NCBI GenBank assembly: GCA_964609395.1
Contig: CAZSRU010000004.1
Span: forward strand, 6,263 to 70,262
Direction of reading: 5' to 3'
Origin: an uncultured Victivallales bacterium
GTDB taxonomy: Bacteria; Verrucomicrobiota; Kiritimatiellia; UBA8416
DNA length: 64,000 nucleotides
Shown: in pieces, positions 8,990 to 43,944 of the stretch
Layout of the letters: every line of letters begins with the position of its first letter
Numbering within the stretch: the stretch's first letter is position 1
Program-made: the position numbers and the translations under genes
The notes under the pieces: generated by a model
The model's database searches: none
Told to the model about the DNA's origin: nothing
What the model saw: only the letters and a program-made list of their open reading frames with translations

Positions 8990-11698
8990 TCATGCCTTTA
9001 TCGCATAGCGGGCGGCTAAACCCGCGAGTGTCATTTGATCCTGGATCTGGTCGTGGGGGATGAGGAGGTAACGCCAAGGCTTGCCGCCGTTCTCCTTGGC
9101 GTGTGCCGTGGCGTGTTCGCACCATGTTGCGGCTGCATTGGCTTTGGCGATAACGGTTTCATCCGTCATCTCTTTTGACTGTTTTGGTTCGCAGAGCAGT
9201 TTCTCCGTCTGCGTCTCAACGACGAAATCAGGCTCGTAGGATTCGTCATGGCGAAAGTGAATCTGGAAGTCGCCCTTGGCGGGTTTAAACCACTTCAGAA
9301 CGGTGCCTTCATTCTCGAGGATCACCGCGAAACGACGTTCGGAGTCGGAGTCGAATTTCTGGATGGGGTAAAGGCATTTGCCAAAACTGCCGAATACCAT
9401 CGAGCCGATGTGGTTACGCTGGCCCTCGGGAACGGGAACGCGGAAATCACGTGTGTTCTCGTCTGCCGCAGCGGAGTAGTTGTTCGACCGGAGTGTACGG
9501 AAGCCTCTTGTCACGTGGGCCTCGTATTCACTCGCGGATTCGACAAAATGCTGTTGCATTTGAGAATGGATCAGGTTCGCGAGGGCCTGCTGGTGGAACT
9601 GGAGGACATTGATCACGTCGTCTTCCGTGGTCAAGTAAGATTGCAGGCGTGAAACGACCTGCCCTGCCAGCTTATACAGCAGGGCCGCGTGTTCGTCGTA
9701 ACTGACATCGTCGAAGTCGACCAGACCGCGAATCAGGTAGTCCTCTGGACGGTTTTCCATAACGATGCCGGTCCCATCCAGCAACCGATACCGCTGGTGC
9801 TCGTGCAGATGCTGGATCAGGATGTCCTGAGAGACCGGCTGGAGGTTGATATTCCTGACATCGAGGTTAAAGTCATTGTAGCCGCAAGAGACTTCACCTT
9901 TGGGAAGCACCACGATTTTGGGGATATCAATGGAGAGGTCGCAGAAAAGCGTCGTCGTGTCCTTGACGACCTTGGCGACATTCGTGATCTCGTAGACACC
10001 GGCTAATTCGCCTTGGGCCGGACGAACGATCTCCTGAACCTTCTGAACGATCTCCTGCTGAACGGCGGCATCATGGAGCTGATCGCTGCCCTTCAGGCGT
10101 TCGTACTGTTTGATGACTTGAAAGGTCGCCTTGGCAACCGACTGGTCCTCCGGCCTCTCGAAGAGCGTACGCTGCACTGCGGCCGGCTGGCCAAGGGCTG
10201 CGGGACGGGCAGGAACCATTCCACCGGAAAGGGCTTGCTCGAAGGCGCTCTTCACCTCTACGGCTTTGCGTCCGGCGTCGGGAATATCCCGACCGATCAC
10301 GACACCCGCCCGAATAATCGAGGTCGGATCGTTGGCGTGGTCCACGATCTCCTGGAACTTGTCGTGCGAAACGATGGTCAACCGGTCCACCGCCGGAACG
10401 CCTACGCGTTTCCCGTAGGGAAGACGCAAGCCACGCCCGATCGACTGTTCGACGAGAGTGCGCGAATTCGCTGCCCGGAGCGGCACGATCGTGTAGAGGT
10501 TCGTGACGTCCCAGCCTTCCTTGAGCATATTGACGTGGATGACGATCTCAACGGGATTATCCGGATGCTCGACGGTCAGAAGCTGCTGGACAACGTCATC
10601 CTTTTCCTCCCCGCGTATGTTGGAGTGGACTTGGATGACCTTGCCCTTATAGCGCCCCTCAAAGAACGCATCGCCTTCGATCAACTGTTGCAACGTGTTG
10701 GCGTGGGTGGTATCGGTTGCCACGACAAGCATGAACGGCTTGACAATGGGCTTGTCGTTATTGCGGGCGTAGATCTCCAGTTCGACCTTCGTGTTCTCAT
10801 GGATGCGCACGCCATCTTCCAATTTCACCTTTTCCAGCCCCTCGGGCGAGTAGGCGTTGGCATCGAAGTTCTCGCGGGTGGCGACAGCGGGCTCCTTTAC
10901 GAAACCGTCGTCCATTGCCGAAGAAAGCGGATAACTGTAGATGACGTTATTGAAAGGCACCGATCTGCCCCCGGTCTCCACCTGCGGCGTGGCAGTCAAC
11001 TCCAGTCCAAGAATAGGCTTGAGCTCGTTAATAGCGCGTACACCTGCGGTGGCGCGGTAACGGTGACTCTCATCCATGAGTACCACCAGATCTTCCAGGC
11101 CGGCGAGATAATCAAAGTAGCTTTCGCCGATGTACTCGCTTAGACGCTTGATCCGGGGAGCGTTCCCGCCACGCACCTCGCTGTTGATCTTTGAGATATT
11201 GAAAATATTGATGTGGACATCCTGTCCCCAGTCTGTCCCCGGCAACATGTCGGCACGACGCACGCCGCGACCGTCCTCGTAGGTGTCACCGGTCACGACA
11301 AGCGGGGGGTGGACGGCAAACTCACCGACCCCCTTGAAAACATATTTGGGCGTATTGGGTGTAAAATCGGCAATCAGCTTGTTATAGATTGTGAGATTGG
11401 GAGCCAGTACAAAGAAGTTGCGAATACCCTCTGACTGATAGAGGTAGGTTATGAACGCGCCCATGAGGCGCGTCTTTCCGACGCCCGTTGCCAAGGCGAA
11501 GCAAAGCGAAGGGAAATCCCGTTCAAACCCCTCGACCGAAGGGAACTCACTGCGGATCGTGTTCAATGCCGCGGCAGGATCGGCATCCTTGGACAAGTCG
11601 ACGATCTCGCATAAGCGGGCCAGAATTTCGAGAGAATCACGCTGCGGGGTGCGGAGACTCAGGCGATTGCTGATGGAGTTAATGTGCTGAAGCGCCAT
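8990..11698 (-). CDS. res: Type III restriction enzyme Res subunit
   Basis: 902 aa; helicase motif I (LATGVGKTRLMGAF) and II (VLMDESHR); C-terminal PD-ExK nuclease (YEPDFVVETQTEKLLCEPK); start 4 nt after mod stop. Confidence 0.85.
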   Translation of the reverse strand: MALQHINSISNRLSLRTPQRDSLEILARLCEIVDLSKDADPAAALNTIRSEFPSVEGFERDFPSLCFALATGVGKTRLMGAFITYLYQSEGIRNFFVLAPNLTIYNKLIADFTPNTPKYVFKGVGEFAVHPPLVVTGDTYEDGRGVRRADMLPGTDWGQDVHINIFNISKINSEVRGGNAPRIKRLSEYIGESYFDYLAGLEDLVVLMDESHRYRATAGVRAINELKPILGLELTATPQVETGGRSVPFNNVIYSYPLSSAMDDGFVKEPAVATRENFDANAYSPEGLEKVKLEDGVRIHENTKVELEIYARNNDKPIVKPFMLVVATDTTHANTLQQLIEGDAFFEGRYKGKVIQVHSNIRGEEKDDVVQQLLTVEHPDNPVEIVIHVNMLKEGWDVTNLYTIVPLRAANSRTLVEQSIGRGLRLPYGKRVGVPAVDRLTIVSHDKFQEIVDHANDPTSIIRAGVVIGRDIPDAGRKAVEVKSAFEQALSGGMVPARPAALGQPAAVQRTLFERPEDQSVAKATFQVIKQYERLKGSDQLHDAAVQQEIVQKVQEIVRPAQGELAGVYEITNVAKVVKDTTTLFCDLSIDIPKIVVLPKGEVSCGYNDFNLDVRNINLQPVSQDILIQHLHEHQRYRLLDGTGIVMENRPEDYLIRGLVDFDDVSYDEHAALLYKLAGQVVSRLQSYLTTEDDVINVLQFHQQALANLIHSQMQQHFVESASEYEAHVTRGFRTLRSNNYSAAADENTRDFRVPVPEGQRNHIGSMVFGSFGKCLYPIQKFDSDSERRFAVILENEGTVLKWFKPAKGDFQIHFRHDESYEPDFVVETQTEKLLCEPKQSKEMTDETVIAKANAAATWCEHATAHAKENGGKPWRYLLIPHDQIQDQMTLAGLAARYAIKA

Positions 11699-11700
11699 GA

Positions 11701-13485
11701 TTATTTATCTCCCGCAGGTTTGATGGTATCCATGTCGAAAAGTGTCGGGCCGGAATCCTTACCCTTGCCGAATTTCCGCGCCGGGCGCTTCGGCACAACA
11801 GAGGCGACGGAGGCTGCTGCTGGCAAGATTTCTGGCGCTTTTGGTAAGTTACTAATCTCCAGCGAATAATCGTCGTGCCCCCATTCGCACTTTTTCAGAA
11901 CCGCCTTGGGGATCTTCTTTACGGTTAAATTCTCAAACTGGCTGACATCGCACTTGAAGGCGGCACAGCAAACCAGAAGACTTCGATTCGGGCCGACGTC
12001 GTCGCTGAGTTTGATCAGCATCTCCTTGGTCATCATCTGCGTGGTCACATAGATGAAATCCTCCTCCGAGCTACGCCCCTGCTGCCAATATACATCAGGG
12101 TTCGGATCGAAAGTGAAGCCCTCCAGCTTGCACAACGCCTCGGCCAGCATGCCGGCATTGAAGGCGGGATTGATGACGGGGTTATCCCACTCGTCCTTGG
12201 CAATCAGAGACGGCCCAAGCCGGTAGTAGCGGAAGCCGCCGCCACCTTGCCAATTAACTGCATTGCTGATCCCGCCCTTATCCCCGCCGTCAATGACTTT
12301 CTGCAAGCGCGGAATGATGTGCGTGTGGCAATGCTCGCCCAGTTCAACCATGATCCACCGCCGCCCCATCTTATGGGCCACCGCGCCGGTGGTGCCGGAA
12401 CCCGCGAAAGAGTCGAGAACCCAGTCGCCGGGGTTGGATGACAACGAGAGAATGCGATGGACTAGTTTCTCAGGCTTTGGCGTTCCAAAGGGATCATCTT
12501 CGTTGAACGTCTTGGCCTCCTGCATTGCGATCCGATTTTCGCCGACCTCATCATAGTGCCAGGTTGTCATCGCAACGACGCCCTTGTCCTCAATCTCCGA
12601 GAGAAACCGCTTGATGCAGGGTTTGTTGCTGCCATCCTTGCCGAAGTACACGCGGTTGTCTGCCCTGAGCCGCTCGTATGAGGATTTCACATAGGCCCAT
12701 GCTCTGCCCTTTGCTGGCAGCGCAACTCTACCGGAAGGAGTGATGATCTCGTAGATATTGTCGCTGTGGCCGGTCTTTGCAAACTGCTTTCCTCGCTGCC
12801 CCGAAGAAAGACCAATTGTGAAGTCGCCAGGGAACCACGGGCCGCGCCCGTACGACTTGCCAGACTCATCAATGCCGTCGTGATCATCCGACTGTTTGTA
12901 AATTGCATTCTGTGCTTACGTCCGCTCCAGTTTCCCGGGGCGCCATAGCTCTTTGTTCTTGGCGAAGACCAAAATGTGATCGTGGCTCTCTGATAACCAC
13001 ACAGCATTGCTCTGAGGAGATGACTTCTTCCACCAGATCACGTTTGTGACGAAGTTGATGCGACCGAATATCTCGTCCATCAGAACCTTGCAATAGTGTC
13101 CCTCATTATCGTCGAGATTCACCCAGATTGATCCATCATCCGTTAGCAGCCGCCTCAGAATTTCAAGGCGGTCCCGCATCAGTGAAAGCCAAATCGAGTG
13201 TTCCACGCCGTCGTCATAGTGTGTGAATGCGGAACCCGTGTTGTAAGGCGGATCGATGTAGATGCACTTGATCTTGCCGGTGAACTCCTGTTCCAGCGCC
13301 TTGAGGGCGAGAAGGTTGTCGCCGAAGATCAGGCGATTATCGAAGAGATCGTGATTGGTCACGCGCTGGGCGGCGTGATAGGATTTCTCCGGTTCCTCGA
13401 CCAGGATGCGCGGTTCCAGTTGCGGCCGGTTCTCCTTGCCGATCCAGGTCAGTTCAAGCCGTGTGTTATTTTTTGCCATAATCAA
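11701..13485 (-). pseudogene. mod: Type III R-M Mod (N6-adenine/N4-cytosine beta-class methyltransferase) interrupted by one in-frame TAA
   Basis: Table ORFs 12916..13485 (DPPY motif IV: CIYIDPPYNTG) and 11701..12690 (motif I: VLDSFAGSGTTGAV) are in the same frame; the 225 nt between them translate without stops; only stop is TAA (tta on + strand) at 12916-12918; intact length would be ~594 aa. Confidence 0.75.
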
Positions 13486-13517
13486 TCCTTGGTCGTTGCG
13501 CGCGGAGGGGCGTGAGC

Positions 13518-16043
13518 CTATGTAGAGATTCCAATTGAGACAGGCACCTGAAGTTGAATACGAACGGGGGTGTAAAGATCGACTTTTGTTTCCGGTGTTT
13601 CAATCGAAACGATCAAGGCATAACGGGTTGTGCGATCCCACTTGCCTTTCTGGGGGCGTACGCGCCACCAACCAATGAGTGGCGTTATCACGATTAGGTT
13701 TGACTCGGCGAGCTCTGCTGCCGTCCCCGACCAGATATCCGAATGGATAGAACCTTTGTTGCGGGCCTGCCCAAGAAGCCAATGACTCGATGGGCTGTTG
13801 GTGCCCGGATGCCCGTTTTCCTCATCCCTGGCCGCATCATTAATGCGCCGCTCAAACTGCCCTCTATCCTCGGTGGGCGAATTCAGGTCAAAGCGGAGTC
13901 CATGGGAAGCATAACGGTAGCGGTCTTTCCATCCGACCTCGCCGGGACTCGGCTCGATGAAATAGGACAGCGTGACCCGCATACGGACAGTGGCATCCGG
14001 TGCCATCTGCTGCAAGGCTTCCTTTGGCCACGGCAACTCATAGAGATGCATGTCGCGAGTGCGGTAGCCACCGCTCTCCCTTTTATCGAACGGCTGGATT
14101 GCCTCTTGCGCGATAAGAGTCAGTCGGTTGCTGGCTGAATGCAGGGCCTTCTCAAGACTTGGAACCCCGTAGCCACAGGAACGCAACAGGCGTTTATAGG
14201 CCGTCTTGCTTTCGTCAGCGCAAAACTGCTGTTTGAGTGTATCGGTCCAGTCAGCGGAGTGGATCATCAGCCCGCGGACGGTTTCCGGCCAGAAATCAGG
14301 ATAGCGGACGCTGATCTGTGCGGCCATCCAAGCCGCTTGGGCGGTTGCGGCGCTGGTCATGCAAAACGGATAGAAATGTGCCTTTTGAGGATCGAAGAAG
14401 GTGGACAGCAATGACAAGTCGGCGCATTGGCTGATGAAGTTCGATGTCTGTTCCCGTGCCAGATTACCGCCTTCCAGGACAAGCTCTGGTTTAATGGGCC
14501 AACTGTCATTCCAAACCGTTGACGTTGTGCTAAACGGCGAGAGGCCGCCGCTTGGGGCAATGGGTGCATAACCGGACATACTGGGTTCACGAATCTCGTC
14601 GAGCTGTGTGAAAGCCCCGATGGTGAGAGCATTCCATGACTGAGCGGGATCGTGAACGGAATCCGTTTCTTGTGCGTCTGGGTAAGTGCCGCGGCCGTGT
14701 TCTTGCGAATTGCCGGCACTGACAATCAGCAAACGCCTGTGATCATCCTCCGCCCCCGAGCACAACTGATCCAGCGCTCCCGACCAAGACGAGGGGCGTC
14801 CCTGGTCGCGGTTGTCCGTCGTTGTCACAGCCATGCAGCCAATGCGTCGACGTTCGGGTGCTTGTATCTCGGCCTTGTAGATGGATTCTGCCGTGATGTG
14901 TCCCCATAGATGCGGGGCATTCCCTCCAGTTGGAGGGAGGATTTTGACGGACTCAAGGCAATGCGCCAGATTGACAGAACCCTTGCCAAGCATGAGTTCC
15001 TGCAAATCGTTGTATGCAGCGAGCCCCGCCATCAAGGTCCCGTGCTTATCGTGATCGTGTGTCCCCCAGGCTGCATCGAAACTGGCGCAATCGTCGGCGG
15101 ACAAGACGGGGGCCAGCAATGGATGACCGCGGTTGACGCCGGTATCGAGAATGCAAATAGACGTATCGGAATTCGGAACCACGTTGATTCTTTCGAGAAC
15201 GGATTCGACCCATTCGGCTTGATCCTTGTTATCGAGATCAAGCCAGAATGCAGCGGTTTCCTTGGCGCGACGATATTCCGCCACATCGTCGGATAATCGA
15301 CTAATGGACGCAAGCTGATCGCGGTTGACATGCACGAGCTTCACCGCCCTATCCGGGAACTTGATGCAGCCCGGTTTGCAATTAATTTGCTGGCTCGTGA
15401 GTAGGGTTTCAAACCGCTGGATGATGTCGTCACTGTCGGAGCTCAACCAGACTTCACACCATTCCGGGCTAGCGGCGGGGATTAAAGCCTTCTCATCCTG
15501 CCAAAAGGATTCAATTTCCAAGGCTTTACGAATACCGGAAATGCTTTCCAATAACACAGCGTGCTTAGGGTTATCCGATCTACTGTTCTCTTCTGTGGCG
15601 TACTGTTCGATTTTATTAAAGAAGGCGTCCTTCTTGCTGTGCGGGATAAAAATCGTGGCATAGGTAACCTTTTGCCCATCTTCTCCGGAAGATGGGCCGA
15701 CCGGTTCGCACCTGACGTTAAGCAGGCGCGTTCTATCAGCAATATCGCGAGGAACAAGATTCTCGAGGCTCTTGGTTACGAGTTGATACCCAGGCTCCCC
15801 TTTAATCTCGACAAAGACGCCATTTCGACCCGTATGGTGAACCACCTGCTCCTGCTTTGCCTCTGCCCATGCGGCAGCGAGCTGCTGTTTGAGAAAAGCA
15901 CTATGCCCGGCGCGATCGCGTGTGGGTACCGGGGGCGTCGTAACTTGAGATTGGCCGGGAGAGAATGTGCTCGTTTCGAATTGCTTGATTAACAAATGAG
16001 GGAGCTGGCTTTCCATCGCGACTATGCAACCTTCCGTCCACAC
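13518..16043 (-). CDS. subtilisin-like S8 serine peptidase, large cytoplasmic-type (IetS-like)
   Basis: 841 aa; S8 triad elements in D-H-S order: ICILDTGVNRGH, DKHGTLMAGLAAY, CMTSAATAQAAWMAA, plus oxyanion AGNS; no obvious signal peptide; overlaps upstream AAA ATPase gene by ~20 nt. Confidence 0.7.
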   Translation of the reverse strand: MWTEGCIVAMESQLPHLLIKQFETSTFSPGQSQVTTPPVPTRDRAGHSAFLKQQLAAAWAEAKQEQVVHHTGRNGVFVEIKGEPGYQLVTKSLENLVPRDIADRTRLLNVRCEPVGPSSGEDGQKVTYATIFIPHSKKDAFFNKIEQYATEENSRSDNPKHAVLLESISGIRKALEIESFWQDEKALIPAASPEWCEVWLSSDSDDIIQRFETLLTSQQINCKPGCIKFPDRAVKLVHVNRDQLASISRLSDDVAEYRRAKETAAFWLDLDNKDQAEWVESVLERINVVPNSDTSICILDTGVNRGHPLLAPVLSADDCASFDAAWGTHDHDKHGTLMAGLAAYNDLQELMLGKGSVNLAHCLESVKILPPTGGNAPHLWGHITAESIYKAEIQAPERRRIGCMAVTTTDNRDQGRPSSWSGALDQLCSGAEDDHRRLLIVSAGNSQEHGRGTYPDAQETDSVHDPAQSWNALTIGAFTQLDEIREPSMSGYAPIAPSGGLSPFSTTSTVWNDSWPIKPELVLEGGNLAREQTSNFISQCADLSLLSTFFDPQKAHFYPFCMTSAATAQAAWMAAQISVRYPDFWPETVRGLMIHSADWTDTLKQQFCADESKTAYKRLLRSCGYGVPSLEKALHSASNRLTLIAQEAIQPFDKRESGGYRTRDMHLYELPWPKEALQQMAPDATVRMRVTLSYFIEPSPGEVGWKDRYRYASHGLRFDLNSPTEDRGQFERRINDAARDEENGHPGTNSPSSHWLLGQARNKGSIHSDIWSGTAAELAESNLIVITPLIGWWRVRPQKGKWDRTTRYALIVSIETPETKVDLYTPVRIQLQVPVSIGIST

Positions 16044-16990
16044 GCATTTTGACGGTCCGCAATCGCTGCAATCAATTCACAAGCCTCGACATGCTTTTTA
16101 TCGCTAAGAACCACACTCTTAATCGCATCCCGGCAGGCATGGTCAATCTCTGCATGGCTCAAGCCGTTACAAGCGTCGATCACACGTTTCCATGAGAAGC
16201 GTGGCGCGATAAATGTACCCAGCACATTTTCAATCAAAGGTTTGACCTGATCGACTGATGGGCGCTCGTAATGCAGCACATCGTCGAAACGGCGGAACAA
16301 GGCATGGTCCAGCAAGCCGGGATTGTTTGTGGCGGCAATAATCAGGCTGTCTGATGTGTCCTGCTCGATGAATTGAAGAAAGGCATTTAGAACCCGCCGG
16401 ATTTCGCCGACGTCGTTATCGTGCGAGCGATCTCCGCCAATAGCATCGAACTCATCAAAGAGATAAACGCCATGAGCCTGCTGCATTAGATCGAATATCT
16501 GCCGAAGCTTAGCGCCCGTCTCCCCCATAAATTTAGTAACAAGGCGATCCACCTGGATGGTGTTCAGTGAAAGATTCAATTCCTTGGCCAAGACTTCCGC
16601 TGTCATGGTCTTGCCGGTTCCGGGAGGACCAACGAGCAGAATCTTGCGACGGTGAACCAATCCATGCTGCTTCAGCTTGTTCTGCTGCCGATATTCATGG
16701 ATGATTCGATCAAGCCGGGATCTGATGGTCGCCGGCACAACCATAGCCGAGATTGGCGTTAGAGGCTCCGTGGACAGGACCAGCCCTTTGAGATCAGCAG
16801 GGAAGCTAAGCAGCCGCGGACCCGCCTTCTTGCGTTCGGAGTCTATGATTTCGCGTAAATCGTGGGCCAAGGCGGCATGGCCCTGTCGAGCCTCCCCTGC
16901 GGCCAACTGCAATGAAACCGAGTAAAAGCGTTCGGCGTCATCACTGAAGTGCGACCGTATCAAAGACTTAAGTTGTTCGGCAGTAGCCAT
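16022..16990 (-). CDS. AAA family ATPase (IetA-like)
   Basis: 322 aa; Walker A LLVGPPGTGKTMTAEVLAKEL, Walker B VYLFDEFDAI; sits in AT-richer block directly upstream of S8 peptidase. Confidence 0.8.
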   Translation of the reverse strand: MATAEQLKSLIRSHFSDDAERFYSVSLQLAAGEARQGHAALAHDLREIIDSERKKAGPRLLSFPADLKGLVLSTEPLTPISAMVVPATIRSRLDRIIHEYRQQNKLKQHGLVHRRKILLVGPPGTGKTMTAEVLAKELNLSLNTIQVDRLVTKFMGETGAKLRQIFDLMQQAHGVYLFDEFDAIGGDRSHDNDVGEIRRVLNAFLQFIEQDTSDSLIIAATNNPGLLDHALFRRFDDVLHYERPSVDQVKPLIENVLGTFIAPRFSWKRVIDACNGLSHAEIDHACRDAIKSVVLSDKKHVEACELIAAIADRQNACGRKVA

Positions 16991-20137: not shown

Positions 20138-22936
20138 TTATTCGTAACTTTCCATCTTGTGCCGCAGGTGGTCAAAGGCCTCCACTAATGAGGTCACGTG
20201 TTCCCTGGCGGCATCCAGATCCCCTGCCCTGGCCGCCTGCTCGATCTCAACGGCGATGCCGCGCAGGGCTTCACCGCCGACGTTGGCTGAGGCACCCTTG
20301 ATGGTGTGGGCATGTCGCTCGGCACCCGTTGCGTCGCCTGACTTCAGGAACGCATCAAGAGCGCTGATCTGCCTGGGTAGGTCGTTCAGGAATCCGCGGA
20401 TAACCGTTGCGGCCAGATCCTCGTCATCCATCAGCCGCTCCAGCATACCCGCCCGGTCCCAGACCGAAGGAGAGACGGCAGACTGCAGACTACAGACTTC
20501 TGAAACTCCACTTTTGTCCTGCTGTTGACCGACTCCGGTCTGCAGTCTGCGGTCTGTAGTCTGCGGTCTCCCCCCGGTCTGTAGCCTGCGGTCTCCCCCC
20601 GCCCCACCCGGCAGCCATTTTGCCAGCACGGCCGCCAGTGCTTTCGGCGATATGGGCTTGGCAATGTAGTCGTCCATGCCGGCTTCCAGGCACATTTCGC
20701 GATCACCCTGCATGGCATGGGCGGTCATGGCGATGATGGGAATGCTCCGATTGCGGATTGCGGATTGCGGATTGCGGATTTGCCTTGAGGCTTCCAAGCC
20801 ATCCATTACGGGCATCTGGACATCCATCAGGACGAGGTCGTACGTTTCTCGTTCCAGCGCCGCCAGCGCCGCGACGCCGTTGCCAACCGTATCGGTTCGC
20901 AGGGCCAGCTTCCTGAGAATCCCCTCGGTCACGAGCCGGTTGACTGCGTTGTCCTCAACCACGAGGATGCGCACGTCGCGCAGGCTTGCCAACTCCATGG
21001 CGGAAGCTGCCGCCGTTTCGCTATCGTCCGCCCCTTCCACTGCCGAGCCTTGCTCCAGGCCGAGAGTGAACCAGAACGTCGTGCCCCGGCCTTCCTCCGA
21101 TTCCACCCCGATCTGCCCCCCCATCAGTTCCGTCAGTTGCCGGGCAATCGCCAGCCCCAGTCCCGTACCGCCGAACCGGCGCGTGCTGGAGGCGTCCACC
21201 TGACTGAACTTCCTGAACAGCAAGCCCTGCTTGTCCGCCGGAATCCCGATCCCCGTGTCGGTCACCGAGAAGCGAAGGCAAATGCCGCCTTCCGGTTCCG
21301 GGTCACCAGATGACTGCCGACTGCTGCCCGCTGACCGCTGACTGTCGATTTCTGCATCCTGCCCGCTGACTACTGACCGCTGACTACTGACCTCCGCCCC
21401 CCCCCGCTCCACCCGGACCGTGATTTCCCCCTTCTTCGTGAACTTCACCGCGTTGCCCACCAGATTCACCAGAACCTGCCGCAGCCGGAACGGGTCGCCA
21501 CTGAGCCGGTCCGGAACATCGGGATCGGCGGCGCAGATGAACGCGACACCTTTCCCCCGCGCCTGCAGCGCCAGTGGCGCCGCGACCTCGTCAAGCAGTT
21601 TGCGCAGGCTGAAATCGCAGCGATCCAGCTCCAGTTTTCCGGCCTCCATCCTGGATAAGTCGAGGATATCGCCGAGCAGGGCCAGAAGCGACTCGGCACT
21701 GTTCATGGCCGTCTCGGCAAAGCGCCGCTGCTCGTCGTTCAGCGCCGTATCGAGCAGCAGGCCGGTCATGCCGATGACCCCGTTCATGGGAGTGCGGATC
21801 TCGTGGCTCATGTTGGCCAGGAATTCGCTCTTGGCCCGGTTGGCCGCTTCAGCCTTGCCGGCCAGTGCCTGGGCCTGGGCCGTGGTTTCCTCAAGTTGAC
21901 GGTTGATCGCCAGCAGCCTCTGCTCGGCCTGCTTGCTCCTGGTGATATCGTGAAGAATGACCAGATAGCCTGTAAGCCGCTCCGTATCCGTTTGAAGCGG
22001 CAGGATGCACAAGTGCCAGGTTTCCACCCCCAGATGCACCTCCTGTTCGCCGATCTCCCCGGCGATGCCGCTGCCTGGCAGCCGGTTGAGACTCGACACC
22101 ATCCCCTCAAAATGCTGTTTGAATACCGGATTGCGGATGAGACGGGCACCCACGGGATTCGCGTTGACAATGTTGATCTGCCTGTCAAGAACGATCAGCG
22201 CGTCCGGCAGACGGTCAAACAAGGCATCCAGCGCCTGGGGAAAGACATCGAAAAGCCCCACGCGAAACACGCCATGGAACAACAGCAGCCCCATGACCAT
22301 GAACCCCACGGGGGTCAGGTCCAGGAACCCTCCGGGCTTGAACCCCATGCTGTAGGCCACATTGAGAGCAAAGGGAATCGCGATGCCGGCCAGGATGTAT
22401 CCGACCCGTCGGAGGTCCATCCCGCGCACCCGGAACAGCAGGCGGATCATCACCGCGATCGACGCCACCACGCATAGATAGGAATAGACCAGATGGACCC
22501 ACCAGAAAGGGCCCGGCGACAGCACCTGATGGGAGAAGCCGCCGAATTCCCCGAGGCTCACGCGGGCGTAGTACAGGGAATGCACGGGATTGGTGGCCAC
22601 CAGCGCAACCACCCCTGCCGGGATCAGGAAGAGCGCGATCACCCGTCCCCGCGTCAGGAGATGCCGTTTGCCCGCATGGGACAGGCAGAAGCCCAGCAGG
22701 CAGGCCGGCACGGAAGCCAGTCCGACATAGGCCACGGCGGTAGTCCACCGCATGCCATCCAGGCTCCGCAATCCCAGTTCAACGGAATATGCCAGCGACC
22801 AGATCGAAACCCCGCCCATGAGCGCCGCAATCCATGCCGCCGACGGCACAGCACCGCGCTGCCGCCAGGAGCGCAGGGCCAGCCAGAGGCTGGTCGCCCC
22901 GGCCAGCCAGATCGAAGGGATAGCGGCGTTCCACAT
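20138..22936 (-). CDS. hybrid sensor histidine kinase with N-terminal 7TM sensor, PAS, HisKA, HATPase, REC and C-terminal Hpt
   Basis: 932 aa; seven predicted TM helices at N-terminus; H-box [21 protein letters not shown]; REC ([13 protein letters not shown]...[13 protein letters not shown]); Hpt ([17 protein letters not shown]). Confidence 0.85.
20460..20590 (-). repeat. intragenic inverted + tandem repeat block with C6 tracts in REC-Hpt linker of kinase 20138-22936
   Basis: gacggcagactgcagactacagac ... gtctgcagtctgcggtctgtagtctgcggtctccccccggtctgtagcctgcggtctcccccc; encodes [22 protein letters not shown]. Confidence 0.6.
20750..20781 (-). repeat. coding-strand heptanucleotide tandem repeat (AATCCGC)x4 inside receiver domain
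   Basis: + strand gcggattgcggattgcggattgcggatttgcc; encodes [10 protein letters not shown] at the RQIR...PIIAMTA loop. Confidence 0.7.
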
Positions 22937-24067: not shown

Positions 24068-29379
<5,312 letters not shown>

Positions 29380-39899: not shown

Positions 39900-40697
39900 G
39901 TGGCAATCGGAAGCAGCGTTATTACAATCGGCAACTATGCGTTCTCAGGCTGCAGAAAACTGACTAACATTACAATTCCAGACAACGTTAGCACCATCGG
40001 TTCATATGCATTCCAATACTGCGACAGCCTGGCCAACGTGATCATGGGCACAAGTGTTTCTTATATCGGTTCCTTTGCTTTTGAAAACTGCTATGGCTTA
40101 CTAAGCGTCGTGATTCCTGACAACGTCACTGATATTGGCAACTGGGCTTTCGGAGGCTGCACAAATCTGGCCCGTGTAACAATCGGCAACGGCGTCACCA
40201 CCATCGGGTCCTACGCTTTCTACTGGTGCTCAACTCTCACCGTTGTGTATTTCACTGGTGACGCACCTGCTCCCGATGCTTCAGTATTCGAAAACTCCCC
40301 CGCCACCATCTACTACTTGCCTAACACTATCGGCTGGGGCGACACATATTCCACCCGTCCCGCCAAACTCTGGAATCCCACGTTCACATTCATCGATATC
40401 AACGCAGGCATCATGACCTATACTATTGCAGGTACTCCGGAGATTCCGATCGCGATTGAAGTTCGTACGAATCTCCTCTCAGGCGAATGGACTCGGCTCT
40501 CCACAACTAACCTTACTGAGGGATTCCTTAATATCCAAATCTCCCGACTCAACCAACCATGCTGCTCTGTTTTATCGTATCGTCGGCCCGTGAGTGGAGC
40601 AGCAGAGCTTTTTTGGGGCTCACCGCTCTTCACCTTGAACTCCCTAATGGGGCAGCGCGATCAATTATTGTGCATGGTAATGACTCTGGGAATGTGA
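39900..40697 (+). CDS. BspA-type leucine-rich-repeat protein, probably a fragment
   Basis: GTG start, no RBS or signal peptide; repeated ~22-aa units (I..IGNYAFSGC..L..ITIPDNVSTIGSYAFQYC..L..V); low-GC; 3' end runs into repeat rep1. Confidence 0.5.
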   Translation: MAIGSSVITIGNYAFSGCRKLTNITIPDNVSTIGSYAFQYCDSLANVIMGTSVSYIGSFAFENCYGLLSVVIPDNVTDIGNWAFGGCTNLARVTIGNGVTTIGSYAFYWCSTLTVVYFTGDAPAPDASVFENSPATIYYLPNTIGWGDTYSTRPAKLWNPTFTFIDINAGIMTYTIAGTPEIPIAIEVRTNLLSGEWTRLSTTNLTEGFLNIQISRLNQPCCSVLSYRRPVSGAAELFWGSPLFTLNSLMGQRDQLLCMVMTLGM

Positions 40698-40921: not shown

Positions 40922-41722
40922 ATGACAGTTCAGAATTCAATTACTTTTGGCGACTACATCGTCTTTGTCGATGAAACCGGCGATCACGGCTTAAACAGCA
41001 TCAGCAAGGAATTCCCGCTGTTTGGTTTGGCATTTTGCGTCGTTCGAAAATCCGAGTACATCGGCACCATCACGCCCGCTCTGCGTCGGCTGAAGTTTCA
41101 GACATTCGGGCACGATATCATCGTACTGCATGAGCACGATATCAGGAAACGCGAGAATGCCTTTGCCATGATGAGCAGGCAACCTCGTGAGGCATTTCTA
41201 AATGCGCTAACAAAAATCATCGAATCGGCCGCATTTAGACTCATCACGGTCATTATCGATAAACGGCTTTTGTCTCCTTCGCTGGAAGCGCAAAACCCTT
41301 ATCACATGGCGCTTTTGTTTGGTCTTGAACGTGTATACCGCATGCTATCAGAATGCGGGCAGGCCGACACATTTACGCATATTGTCGTTGAGTCGAGGGG
41401 CAAGCGGGAAGATGCTGAACTCGAACTGGAGTTCCACCGCATCACGGAAGGTGAGAATACGTTCGCCAAACCATTGCCGTTCCGTCTGATCATGGCCGAT
41501 AAACGGACCAATTCCGAAGGGCTTCAGCTTGCGGATATGGTTGCACGCCCCGTTGCGCTTTCAATCCTTCGCCCTGATCAGGCAAACCGAGCCTTTGATG
41601 TCTTACGTGACAAATTCTGGACCAGCGCCGACGGCATCATGGATGATTACGGTCTTAAAGTGTATCCGACAAAAACGAAAGGGCCACCGGGAAGTCCCAG
41701 TAGCCCTTCGCCGAACGGGTAG
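40922..41722 (+). CDS. DUF3800-family protein
   Basis: 266 aa; N-terminal YIVFVDETGDHGL and C-terminal SEGLQLADMVARP signature regions; low-GC; flanked by rep1 and rep2. Confidence 0.6.
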   Translation: MTVQNSITFGDYIVFVDETGDHGLNSISKEFPLFGLAFCVVRKSEYIGTITPALRRLKFQTFGHDIIVLHEHDIRKRENAFAMMSRQPREAFLNALTKIIESAAFRLITVIIDKRLLSPSLEAQNPYHMALLFGLERVYRMLSECGQADTFTHIVVESRGKREDAELELEFHRITEGENTFAKPLPFRLIMADKRTNSEGLQLADMVARPVALSILRPDQANRAFDVLRDKFWTSADGIMDDYGLKVYPTKTKGPPGSPSSPSPNG

Positions 41723-41802
41723 TCCCATTCCAAATCTGGTTTGATACTAGCCTGTCTTAGTGAAATAGCCAATCATTTTTTCAGTTGGCATTTGGGGTAC
41801 TC

Positions 41803-41950
41803 CATTCTCCCCTTTGAATTGCCGAGGGGCCGCGATCATTTTTGTGCATGGCAATGCGCTGGGAATGTGATAGGAATATGGATCATGAATGCGCAACTTA
41901 TAAGGCGTTGTGTGCGGGCGATGACGGAAACCGGTGAGGGCACGCTGGTG
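41803..41950 (+). repeat. ~145-bp interspersed repeat, copy 2 (rep2)
   Basis: see rep1; carries conserved short ORF start ATGAATGCGcaacttataaggcgttgtgtgcgggcgatgacggaaaccggtgagggc (MNAQLIRRCVRAMTETGEG). Confidence 0.75.
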
Positions 41951-41999
41951 ATGGTTTTTTGAGAATTGAACGGAGTATGACATTGGAAGGAGGCCGGTT

Positions 42000-43280
42000 A
42001 TGGCCAAGATTGAAGGGTTCAGGGTACGCAACTTTGGCGTGCTGAGGGATGTTACGCTTGGGAAATTGTGGAATTTGCAGACTGCCCAGCCGTTGACCCC
42101 CATGACTGCGGTTATCGGCAAGAACGGCGTCGGCAAAAGCACGTTGTTCAATGCATTCGGCTTTCTCGCGGATGCCTTGAAATCGGGTGTCGAGGAGGCT
42201 TGCGACGCGCGCGGGAGAGGCGGATTCGACAGGATTCGGTCTCAAGGCATCAAAGAGCCGGTAGAGTTCGAGATCTACTACAAGGAAGAGGGCAGTACAC
42301 GTCCAATCACGTACTCACTCTCGATGGATCTGGACAAGACCGGCCGTCCCTATGTGAAGCAAGAACGGTTGCGGCAGCGGCGCAAGGGCCAGAAGCATGG
42401 GTGGCCATTCTCGTTTCTGATGCTGAACGATGGCAAGGGTGTCGCGTGGAAAGGCGAGGATGCCGGCTGGGAGGTGAACGAGGACAAGGAGTTGTTCGAT
42501 CTGGCAGGTCTTATTGACGAGGTGCAGCGCAAGGAAGGTCCTGAAACCGAAGTCGTTGAGTTGCAGGACAAGCGTAAACTCGGCATTGCCACACTCGGGT
42601 CTTTGAAACAACATCCCCGCATCTCGCTGTTCCGGCAGTTTATCGAAGGTTGGTATCTGAGCTACTTCACGCCTGACGCCGCCCGAGGATTGCCGCTGGC
42701 CGGTCCGCAACGCCATTTGAACATTCACGGCGACAATGTCGGTAATGTCGTTCAGTACATGGAGCGGGAATACCCCGCTAAGTTCCAGACCGTACTGGAT
42801 CGCATCTCGAAGAAGATTCCGGGTATCGATAAGATCACCTGGGATAAGACGAAAGACGGCCGGTTGCTGCTCTGTTTTAACGACAAGGGATTCGAAGATC
42901 CCTTTTATGCCCAACAAATGTCGGACGGCACACTGAAAGTATTCGCCTACCTTCTTTTGCTTGAAGACCCTTCGCCCCCGCCGTTCCTATGCATTGAGGA
43001 ACCAGAGAACGGGCTCTATCACAAGTTACTCGAGACTCTGGCGGCTGAGTTCCGTGCCCATGCAACGGGAAGAAAAGGCGGTTCGCAGGTTTTCGTCACT
43101 ACGCATCAACCGTATTTTGTCGATGCACTGACCCCCGAAGAGGTGTGGGTATTGGAAAAGGGCAAAGACGGTTTCTCAACCGTCCGTCGCGCTAGCGACG
43201 ATCAAACCGTACAGAACATGGTAACCGAAGGGTTGCCCCTGGGCGGCCTGTGGTACAGCGACTATCTTGACGCGAGGTAA
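42000..43280 (+). CDS. AAA/ABC-type ATPase of two-gene defence-like module (AbiLi / PARIS AriA-like)
   Basis: ATG after GGAAGGAGG; Walker A VIGKNGVGKSTLFNAFGFL; ABC signature-like QMSDGTLKV; Walker B/D-loop PPFLCIEEPENGLY; H-loop VFVTTHQPYF. Confidence 0.75.
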   Translation: MAKIEGFRVRNFGVLRDVTLGKLWNLQTAQPLTPMTAVIGKNGVGKSTLFNAFGFLADALKSGVEEACDARGRGGFDRIRSQGIKEPVEFEIYYKEEGSTRPITYSLSMDLDKTGRPYVKQERLRQRRKGQKHGWPFSFLMLNDGKGVAWKGEDAGWEVNEDKELFDLAGLIDEVQRKEGPETEVVELQDKRKLGIATLGSLKQHPRISLFRQFIEGWYLSYFTPDAARGLPLAGPQRHLNIHGDNVGNVVQYMEREYPAKFQTVLDRISKKIPGIDKITWDKTKDGRLLLCFNDKGFEDPFYAQQMSDGTLKVFAYLLLLEDPSPPPFLCIEEPENGLYHKLLETLAAEFRAHATGRKGGSQVFVTTHQPYFVDALTPEEVWVLEKGKDGFSTVRRASDDQTVQNMVTEGLPLGGLWYSDYLDAR

Positions 43281-43284
43281 TCGC

Positions 43285-43944
43285 ATGCACTTTGAAATAC
43301 TGGTTGAAGACCAATCCGGGAAAAAGCTGTTGGACGAGATTGTGCCGCGCATCATTGGTGCTCCCCACACCTTTCGAGTACTGCCTTACAAGGGGATTGG
43401 AAAAATCCCGAAAGGATTGAAGCCTGGTTCTGATGCGAGCAAACGAATCCTTCTGGATCAACTGCCCCGCATTCTCAAAGGGCACGGAAAGACCTTTGCC
43501 GGCTACGGTCCGGGCTATCTTGCGGCGGTGGTTATTGTCTGTGATCTGGATCGCAAGTGTTTCCATGAATTCCGCCAAGAGCTTCTCGGAATTTTGGATG
43601 CTTGCGACCCGAGACCAGATACCCGATTCTGCCTTGCTGTCGAGGAGGGAGAGGCATGGCTTCTTGGAGACCGCGAGGCTATTCGAGCGACCTATCCGAA
43701 TGCAAAGTCCGCAGTTCTTGATGGCTACGTTCAGGACAGCATCTGCGACACTTGGGAATTGCTTGCAGACGCAATCCATCCCGGAGGCTCAAGAGCGTTG
43801 ATTGCTGCGGGATGGCAGGCCGCTGGAGCTGCCAAGTCGGCCTGGGCCACAGCGATTTCTCCTCACATGAAGATTGAAGACAACAATTCGCCAAGTTTTC
43901 ACTATTTTCGAAGCAAATTGCTAGAACTTGCTGGACAGAATTAA
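43285..43944 (+). CDS. DUF4276-like protein (predicted Toprim/OLD-like partner of the ATPase; AbiLii-like)
   Basis: ATG 43285 seven nt after GAGGT and 5 nt after ATPase stop; N-terminus MHFEILVEDQSGKKLL typical of DUF4276 (conserved E in ILVE); 219 aa. Confidence 0.55.
   Translation: MHFEILVEDQSGKKLLDEIVPRIIGAPHTFRVLPYKGIGKIPKGLKPGSDASKRILLDQLPRILKGHGKTFAGYGPGYLAAVVIVCDLDRKCFHEFRQELLGILDACDPRPDTRFCLAVEEGEAWLLGDREAIRATYPNAKSAVLDGYVQDSICDTWELLADAIHPGGSRALIAAGWQAAGAAKSAWATAISPHMKIEDNNSPSFHYFRSKLLELAGQN

Follow-up and report, generated by a model that had tools for sequence, protein, structure and literature searches.

Very probably, a recent G>T substitution converted the Glu188 codon GAA into TAA in the mod gene of a Type III mod-res operon, ending translation at 187 residues and leaving a restriction-modification (R-M) system that is predicted to be r-m-. 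The operon lies on the minus strand of the window, the whole stretch of 64,000 nucleotides that was analysed. The mod stop is real and recent, but the outcome is unremarkable: a nonsense pseudogene in an established type of system. The features of the operon are as follows.

8990..11698, minus strand: intact Type III res, 902 aa (Pfam ResIII and Helicase_C; PADLOC REase_III PDLC03648, E 4e-242)
11701..13479, minus strand: Type III mod pseudogene, 592 codons with one in-frame stop, a beta-class N6-adenine methyltransferase by sequence
12916..12918, minus strand: premature TAA, codon 188 counted from the ATG at 13479
12919..13479, minus strand: truncated Mod product, 187 aa, with the N-terminal domain and MTase motifs IV-VIII
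11701..12915, minus strand: remainder of mod 3' of the stop, 404 codons, predicted to be untranslated

Minus-strand translation of window positions 13485..11701 gives 595 codons with a single internal stop. The earlier note had begun the gene at TTG 13485; the true start is most likely ATG 13479 instead, which is preceded by an AAGGA Shine-Dalgarno sequence and was chosen by the public gene callers. Over the resulting 592 codons, the TAA at 12918..12916 is the sole defect, with no frameshift and no further stop, and the G>T change on the coding strand corresponds to an A at plus-strand position 12918. The two mod fragments had been proposed to share one frame, and they do: the 225 nt between the TAA and GTG 12690 form 75 stop-free codons. 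This 75-codon stretch is real coding sequence and not a chance opening, as judged by its low dN (0.018) relative to dS (1.1) against the closest homolog. Public gene callers split mod into ORFs of 187 aa and 329 aa, the second starting at GTG 12690, and the 187-aa ORF is called identically in three public sources.

Both pieces carry recognizable parts of one methyltransferase. The N-terminal piece matches positions 1-110 of the Pfam N6_N4_Mtase profile, with DPPY at aa 76-79, and the C-terminal piece matches positions 132-217, with FAGSG at aa 358; in the reconstructed Mod, the two Pfam halves occupy aa 70-178 and 291-386. PADLOC MTase_III PDLC03636 matches both pieces (E 1e-89 for the N part, 2e-115 for the C part), and the reconstructed Mod is similar to solved Type III Mod subunits (PDB 6K0W, E 4e-34; 4ZCF, EcoP15I, E 3.5e-32). 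The motif order, DPPY followed by a target-recognition domain (TRD) between the MTase halves and then FxGxG, is that of the beta class and of a Type III Mod, in a reading frame that the TAA interrupts at codon 188. Judged by these features, mod belongs to the Type III Mod family through its ancestry, but being a pseudogene it is not a working representative. TAA is the commonest stop in the window and ends 11 of its 24 genes, mod itself included, which indicates that the genetic code is standard and rules out an alternative code as the explanation for the stop. Selenocysteine or pyrrolysine recoding does not apply to TAA.

The Mod family was compared using a 5.8-billion-protein database, 21 of whose Mod homologs were taken into a residue alignment. 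The best 120 Mod matches are all single proteins of 548-612 aa, at 64-86% identity, and the closest homolog (P0001) is an intact protein 86% identical to the reconstructed Mod. The alignment column beneath the stop is Glu in most of the 21 homologs, P0001 among them (…KRTEAQNAIYK…). At the codon level, TAA is aligned with GAA in the closest homolog (L081) and with GAG in the next closest (L082), so that the sense codon that the earlier note had expected orthologs to provide is now at hand. Among 162 homolog loci from genomes and metagenomes, this column is occupied by E at 69, D at 25, A at 14 and P at 11, other residues being sporadic; the residues tolerated there are E, D, A, P, K, R, T, N and Q, and no stop interrupts the alignment at this position in about 155 of the loci. 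With GAA in the closest homolog, the TAA is read as a Glu codon made nonsense by a G>T change, and the ancestral codon 188 was most likely GAA. The lesion is thus in frame, confined to a single TAA and aligned with GAA, which upholds the earlier description of a nonsense mutation as opposed to a frameshift. The claim that mod is not split at a domain boundary is borne out as well, the family being single-gene at this point in the best 120 matches and in the roughly 155 stop-free loci.

The structure of EcoP15I allows the cut to be placed within the domain architecture of Mod. EcoP15I Mod consists of an N-terminal domain (14-60), an MTase domain (62-262 and 390-516), a TRD (263-384) and a C-terminal domain or CTD (539-644); base-specific contacts are the task of the TRD, Res docks on the CTD of ModA, and motif I lies within 390-516 (PMC4490356). 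In the HMMER alignment to 4ZCF, the stop is aligned with D264 of EcoP15I Mod. The Pfam half-domain limits, which independently put the TRD insertion at about aa 179-290, agree with this location. The earlier note had the protein truncated inside the TRD; the TRD is indeed affected, but the stop sits at its very start and removes the whole domain. The TRD and motif X are encoded in the 404-codon remainder, together with motif I for SAM binding (FAGSGTT, aa 358-364) and the C-terminal domain that contacts Res, from which we infer that the 187-aa product would lack the TRD, motifs X and I-III, and the CTD.

Could the two pieces of mod work together as separate polypeptides? Ribosomes would have to reinitiate at an in-frame ATT five codons 3' of the stop, or at GTG 12690, and the products would have to reassemble. 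Split MTases are known, M.AquI being an example, the 404 downstream codons are perfectly preserved, population SNPs outside the clustered tracts are synonymous, and gene callers do annotate the 329-aa ORF from GTG 12690. However, the homologs are single proteins, none is split at the position of the stop, and the downstream piece has no Shine-Dalgarno sequence of its own. The first in-frame start 3' of the stop is GTG 12690 (aa 264), with no canonical start before it, and neither the ATT nor the GTG has a Shine-Dalgarno sequence at a usable distance. GTG 12690 is aligned with EcoP15I residue 352, inside the distal TRD lobe; a product starting there would be missing aa 189-263, a segment that makes up about two-thirds of the TRD insertion and contains many invariant residues. 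The preservation of the downstream codons is equally explained by a recent mutation, and we consider a two-polypeptide Mod highly improbable.

A recent nonsense mutation is what the conservation of the two parts of mod points to. Measured against the columns that are invariant in the 21 homologs, mod keeps 71 of 72 upstream of the stop and all 121 downstream. Relative to the closest homolog, dN/dS is 0.036 upstream of the stop, 0.047 downstream and 0.016 in the 75-codon gap. The complete set of downstream columns, the similar dN/dS values and the lack of any other lesion make the mutation look recent relative to the divergence from any sampled homolog. It is, in turn, at least as old as the small divergence among three haplotypes of the region.

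These haplotypes come from three assemblies, two of which were retrieved by exact look-up of the neighbouring IetA protein. JGI 3300020048 contig Ga0207193_1000690 (L083, 61 kb) matches the window at 99.76% identity (45 mismatches over 19 kb), the Logan assembly of SRR7760390 (L084, 11 kb) at 99.84% (18 mismatches over 11 kb); both align without gaps and represent the species from which the window comes. Both carry TAA at the identical mod codon. The earlier note had allowed for a base-call error, in which case the organism's mod would be intact. The stop is one base away from a sense codon, and the source is a metagenome-assembled contig of 78,455 bp; the three assemblies may share a sample or come from related ones, and they attest to one consistent consensus, not to three separate isolates. 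Against an artefact, the NCBI/ENA contig, the JGI assembly and the Logan assembly differ at more than 50 polymorphic sites yet agree on the TAA, the 19 kb aligned without gaps show no indel-type errors, and the 5.8-billion-protein database holds no intact near-identical protein. Concordance on the TAA amid discordance at so many other sites makes a base-call or consensus error very unlikely.

An intact allele was sought further afield. No allele more than 86% identical to this mod was found in the 5.8-billion-protein database. In metagenome contigs, an exact-pattern scan with N at the mutated base gave no match and a protein-based scan gave nothing closer than 65% identity; a scan of genome contigs gave nothing closer than 69%, in a set of representative genomes that does not include the window's own species.

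Outside clustered SNP tracts, the mod and res polymorphisms among the three haplotypes are synonymous in 3 of 3 cases, a number too small to exclude that the downstream part of mod is still under selection. The tracts themselves are conspicuous. Within mod codons 25-50 (window 13330-13405), L083 differs at 18 sites within 76 bp, 7 of them nonsynonymous, and is otherwise nearly the same across mod; the pattern resembles a recombination tract from a mod allele of the community with about 76% identity, or a chimeric metagenome consensus. In res codons 476-526 (window 10121-10271), 13 clustered SNPs, 6 of them nonsynonymous, are common to L083 and L084, and the window Res differs from the Res of the other assemblies by several residues. 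The latter cluster falls in the least conserved linker of Res (mean top-residue frequency 0.27 vs 0.58 overall) and is probably another imported tract or a hypervariable linker.

A leaky or suppressed stop, whether by readthrough or by a suppressor tRNA encoded elsewhere, would allow some full-length Mod to be made, at a low and perhaps regulated level. Among bacterial stop codons TAA terminates most efficiently, and it is also the commonest genuine stop in the window; no tRNA gene was found in the window, and neither a recoding signal nor a conserved structure is evident. Nor does any homolog have a conserved stop here: a single locus (L047) has a stop at the same column, where it is one of eight in a wrecked gene. 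The position tolerates many residues, so a readthrough product would probably be functional, and there is the precedent of phage P1, for which stop-codon misreading was once proposed to explain the expression of restriction (PMC3874151). On balance, suppression of the stop appears most unlikely.

Phase variation among methyltransferases is classically a property of Type III mod genes (PMC3874151); on this alternative, the locus would be a phasevarion caught in the OFF state. The known phasevarions of Haemophilus, Neisseria and Helicobacter resemble the window in having a Type III mod that is OFF with its partner gene present. Phasevarions switch by slippage of simple repeats in mod, which causes frameshifts, and they typically keep mod under selection while res decays. 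The window differs on each count: mod contains no such repeat, its lesion is a nonsense substitution, and the broken gene is mod, next to an intact res. Tandem Repeats Finder reports only weak matches of 2.0-2.7 copies in mod, with no simple-sequence repeat tract; an in-frame base substitution is not readily reversible; and every sampled haplotype is OFF. Phase variation consequently has a near-negligible probability, and the four alternatives (error, split or reinitiation, readthrough or suppression, and phase variation) are unlikely even when taken together.

The partner gene is complete. The Res protein displays the SF2 helicase motifs (GVGKT72, DESH209 and QSIGRGLR418) and a C-terminal PD-(D/E)xK nuclease (PDF823...EPK837), the two components that identify a Type III Res encoded beside mod, and it is full length. 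It aligns over residues 1-902 with homologs that adjoin mod in other genomes, and the mod-res pairing is kept in most of the approximately 70 genome loci that are long enough to include res (82 were fetched). At positions at least 95% conserved among 91 intact homologs, the window Res keeps 130 of 131, which, with its full length and complete set of motifs, confirms the earlier view that res is intact. The exception is G771S, at about 9386-9388 on the minus strand, where Ser replaces Gly in ...VFGSFGK... ahead of the PD-ExK nuclease motif; the change may be harmless, or it may be an early mark of relaxed constraint. The junction with mod is tight: mod ends with TAA at 11703-11701, followed by TC and then the res ATG at 11698, giving a spacer of 2 nt and correcting the 4 nt given previously. 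A GGGAGA motif lies 10 nt upstream of the res ATG.

The predicted consequence follows from the division of labour in Type III enzymes. Mod supplies DNA recognition, its CTD binds Res, and it stabilises Res (PMC4490356, PMC3874151); it recognises the site and guides Res to DNA, and Res becomes more abundant when Mod is expressed, probably because Mod shields it from proteolysis (PMC3874151). In EcoP1, a 2-bp gap between mod and res has been interpreted as translational coupling (PMC3874151). By analogy, translation in the window would stop after residue 187, at the border of the N-terminal MTase half and the TRD, and the truncated Mod, devoid of recognition, SAM binding and Res binding, would not methylate. 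Res would be left with no partner for DNA targeting or stabilisation. With ribosomes halting 1.2 kb short of the mod/res junction, res would no longer be translationally coupled to mod, and Rho-dependent polarity may lower res expression further; some Res may still be made from its own GGGAGA motif.

Genetic work on P1 bears on whether such an allele can be tolerated: mutagenesis of P1 lysogens yields only r-m- or r-m+ mutants, the r+m- class being lethal (PMC3874151). The removal of the TRD, the SAM motif and the Res-binding domain should place the window allele in the viable r-m- class, and the whole Type III system is most likely inactive, with an r-m- phenotype. The closest parallel is the r-m- mod mutants of phage P1, in which loss of Mod likewise abolishes both restriction and modification and is tolerated by the host, the phenotype in the window being a prediction. 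The P1 c2 alleles, missense changes with a SAM-binding defect, have the opposite outcome, being r+m- and lethal (PMC3874151). Harmless to the cell, unlike r+m-, an r-m- allele would be able to persist while res had not yet decayed. The locus would then provide a clean natural case of the safe loss of a Type III system, with mod knocked out first and Res disarmed, the opposite of pathogen phasevarions, in which it is res that decays. It is very improbable that the TAA allele is not simply dead, with trace Mod made by readthrough or reinitiation, or with Res working with another Mod elsewhere in the genome; if true, residual or second Mod would explain the absence of decay in res and downstream mod in the three haplotypes. 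On the preferred reading of an inactivated system, the annotation should describe one Type III R-M system with a mod pseudogene, not two methylase genes as in the public calls.

The organization of the operon resembles that of EcoP15I and EcoP1I (Mod2Res1; PDB 4ZCF). In both, mod precedes res, with a 2-nt spacer as in EcoP1, and a beta-class Mod (DPPY, TRD, FxGxG, CTD) is paired with an SF2-helicase Res that has a C-terminal PD-(D/E)xK nuclease. In contrast to EcoP15I, the window Mod is only distantly similar and Res matches 4ZCF_C over RecA2 only (E 1e-6), a distance that sets the window mod-res apart as a different Type III subfamily. The best models for the window pair are PADLOC PDLC03636 and PDLC03648, and its mod is a pseudogene.

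Mod genes have been broken elsewhere in the family. Single in-frame mod stops occur at L012 (W261>TAG), L040 (W12>TAG), L044 (L108>TAA), L090, L119, L126 and L137, and L047 has eight mod stops and two res stops. About 4% of the 162 related loci carry their own mod stops, at other positions; that these stops fall at different codons argues that no recoding site is shared, and a conserved recoding site was ruled out on this ground. The stops in other loci are independent events and decay of this sort is routine, and the figure of about 4% of 162 loci offers a rough base rate of independent mod stops in a widely transferred Mod family. Later stages of decay are seen in a 179-aa frameshifted remnant of a related mod (P0247), with no res beside it, found on three unrelated metagenome contigs (L085, L086 and L087). 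A Candidatus Peribacteria MAG (L065) shows 26 apparent stops in mod and 39 in res under translation table 11; these almost certainly reflect TGA read as sense in the CPR lineage, not decay, and the locus is a caution for automated pseudogene counts.

The mod-res genes belong to a low-GC stretch of about 8 kb, roughly 8990-16990, in which GC is 0.53-0.58 (9-17 kb) vs about 0.65 in the flanks, and which is flanked by a hybrid histidine kinase gene on one side and a response-regulator/GGDEF gene on the other. Two further genes complete the stretch.

13518-16043, minus strand: ietS-like S8 peptidase, 841 aa (PADLOC IetS, E 1e-35)
16022-16990, minus strand: ietA-like AAA ATPase, 322 aa (PADLOC IetA, E 9e-72)

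The ietA-like and ietS-like genes overlap by 22 nt, and the pair is co-oriented with mod and lies 38 nt upstream of it. Good PADLOC scores combined with NCBIfam IteA/IteS scores far below the curated cut-offs suggest that the 13518-16990 genes are a divergent IetAS-like pair, which shares the defence island with the R-M system but does not belong to it. The genes ietA-ietS-mod-res may form one four-gene defence operon. Scans for promoters and terminators showed no excess of sites over shuffled controls, and no flanking direct repeats or tRNA genes marking the island were found. At the closest mod homolog with usable context (L082), the neighbours are an SNF2 helicase, an OLD-family nuclease and AbiE; they differ from those in the window, which indicates that the mod-res module moves between defence islands.

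The surroundings of the island have features of their own. For a flanking ABC ATPase, the closest relatives that bear a name are in Pelovirga and Desulfuromusa, which suggests a Desulfuromonadales-like host. The island sits in the middle of an unusually dense run of two-component genes (5436-30393) comprising four hybrid histidine kinases of at most 1782 aa (with CHASE4, PAS, GAF and Hpt domains), the GGDEF response regulator, whose start is placed differently in public gene calls, and one more response regulator. Within this run, two adjacent genes for hybrid histidine kinases, ORFs of 932 aa and 1782 aa, are linked by repeats, 21054-21854 vs 24989-25786 (about 800 bp) and 20612-20961 vs 24109-24458 (about 350 bp), each about 90% identical. 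The window and L083 also differ by a cluster of 8 SNPs at 26172-26296, and together the repeats and the cluster suggest gene conversion between paralogs or assembly ambiguity.

A second low-GC island (GC 0.50-0.55) occupies 40922-43944 on the plus strand and encodes a DUF3800 protein and a strong match to the candidate defence system HEC-01; a BspA-type protein is encoded ahead of its genes.

39900-40697: BspA-type LRR protein, before the genes of the second low-GC island
42000-43280, plus strand: HEC-01A ATPase (E 5e-194)
43267-43944, plus strand: HEC-01B/DUF4276 protein (E 3e-92)
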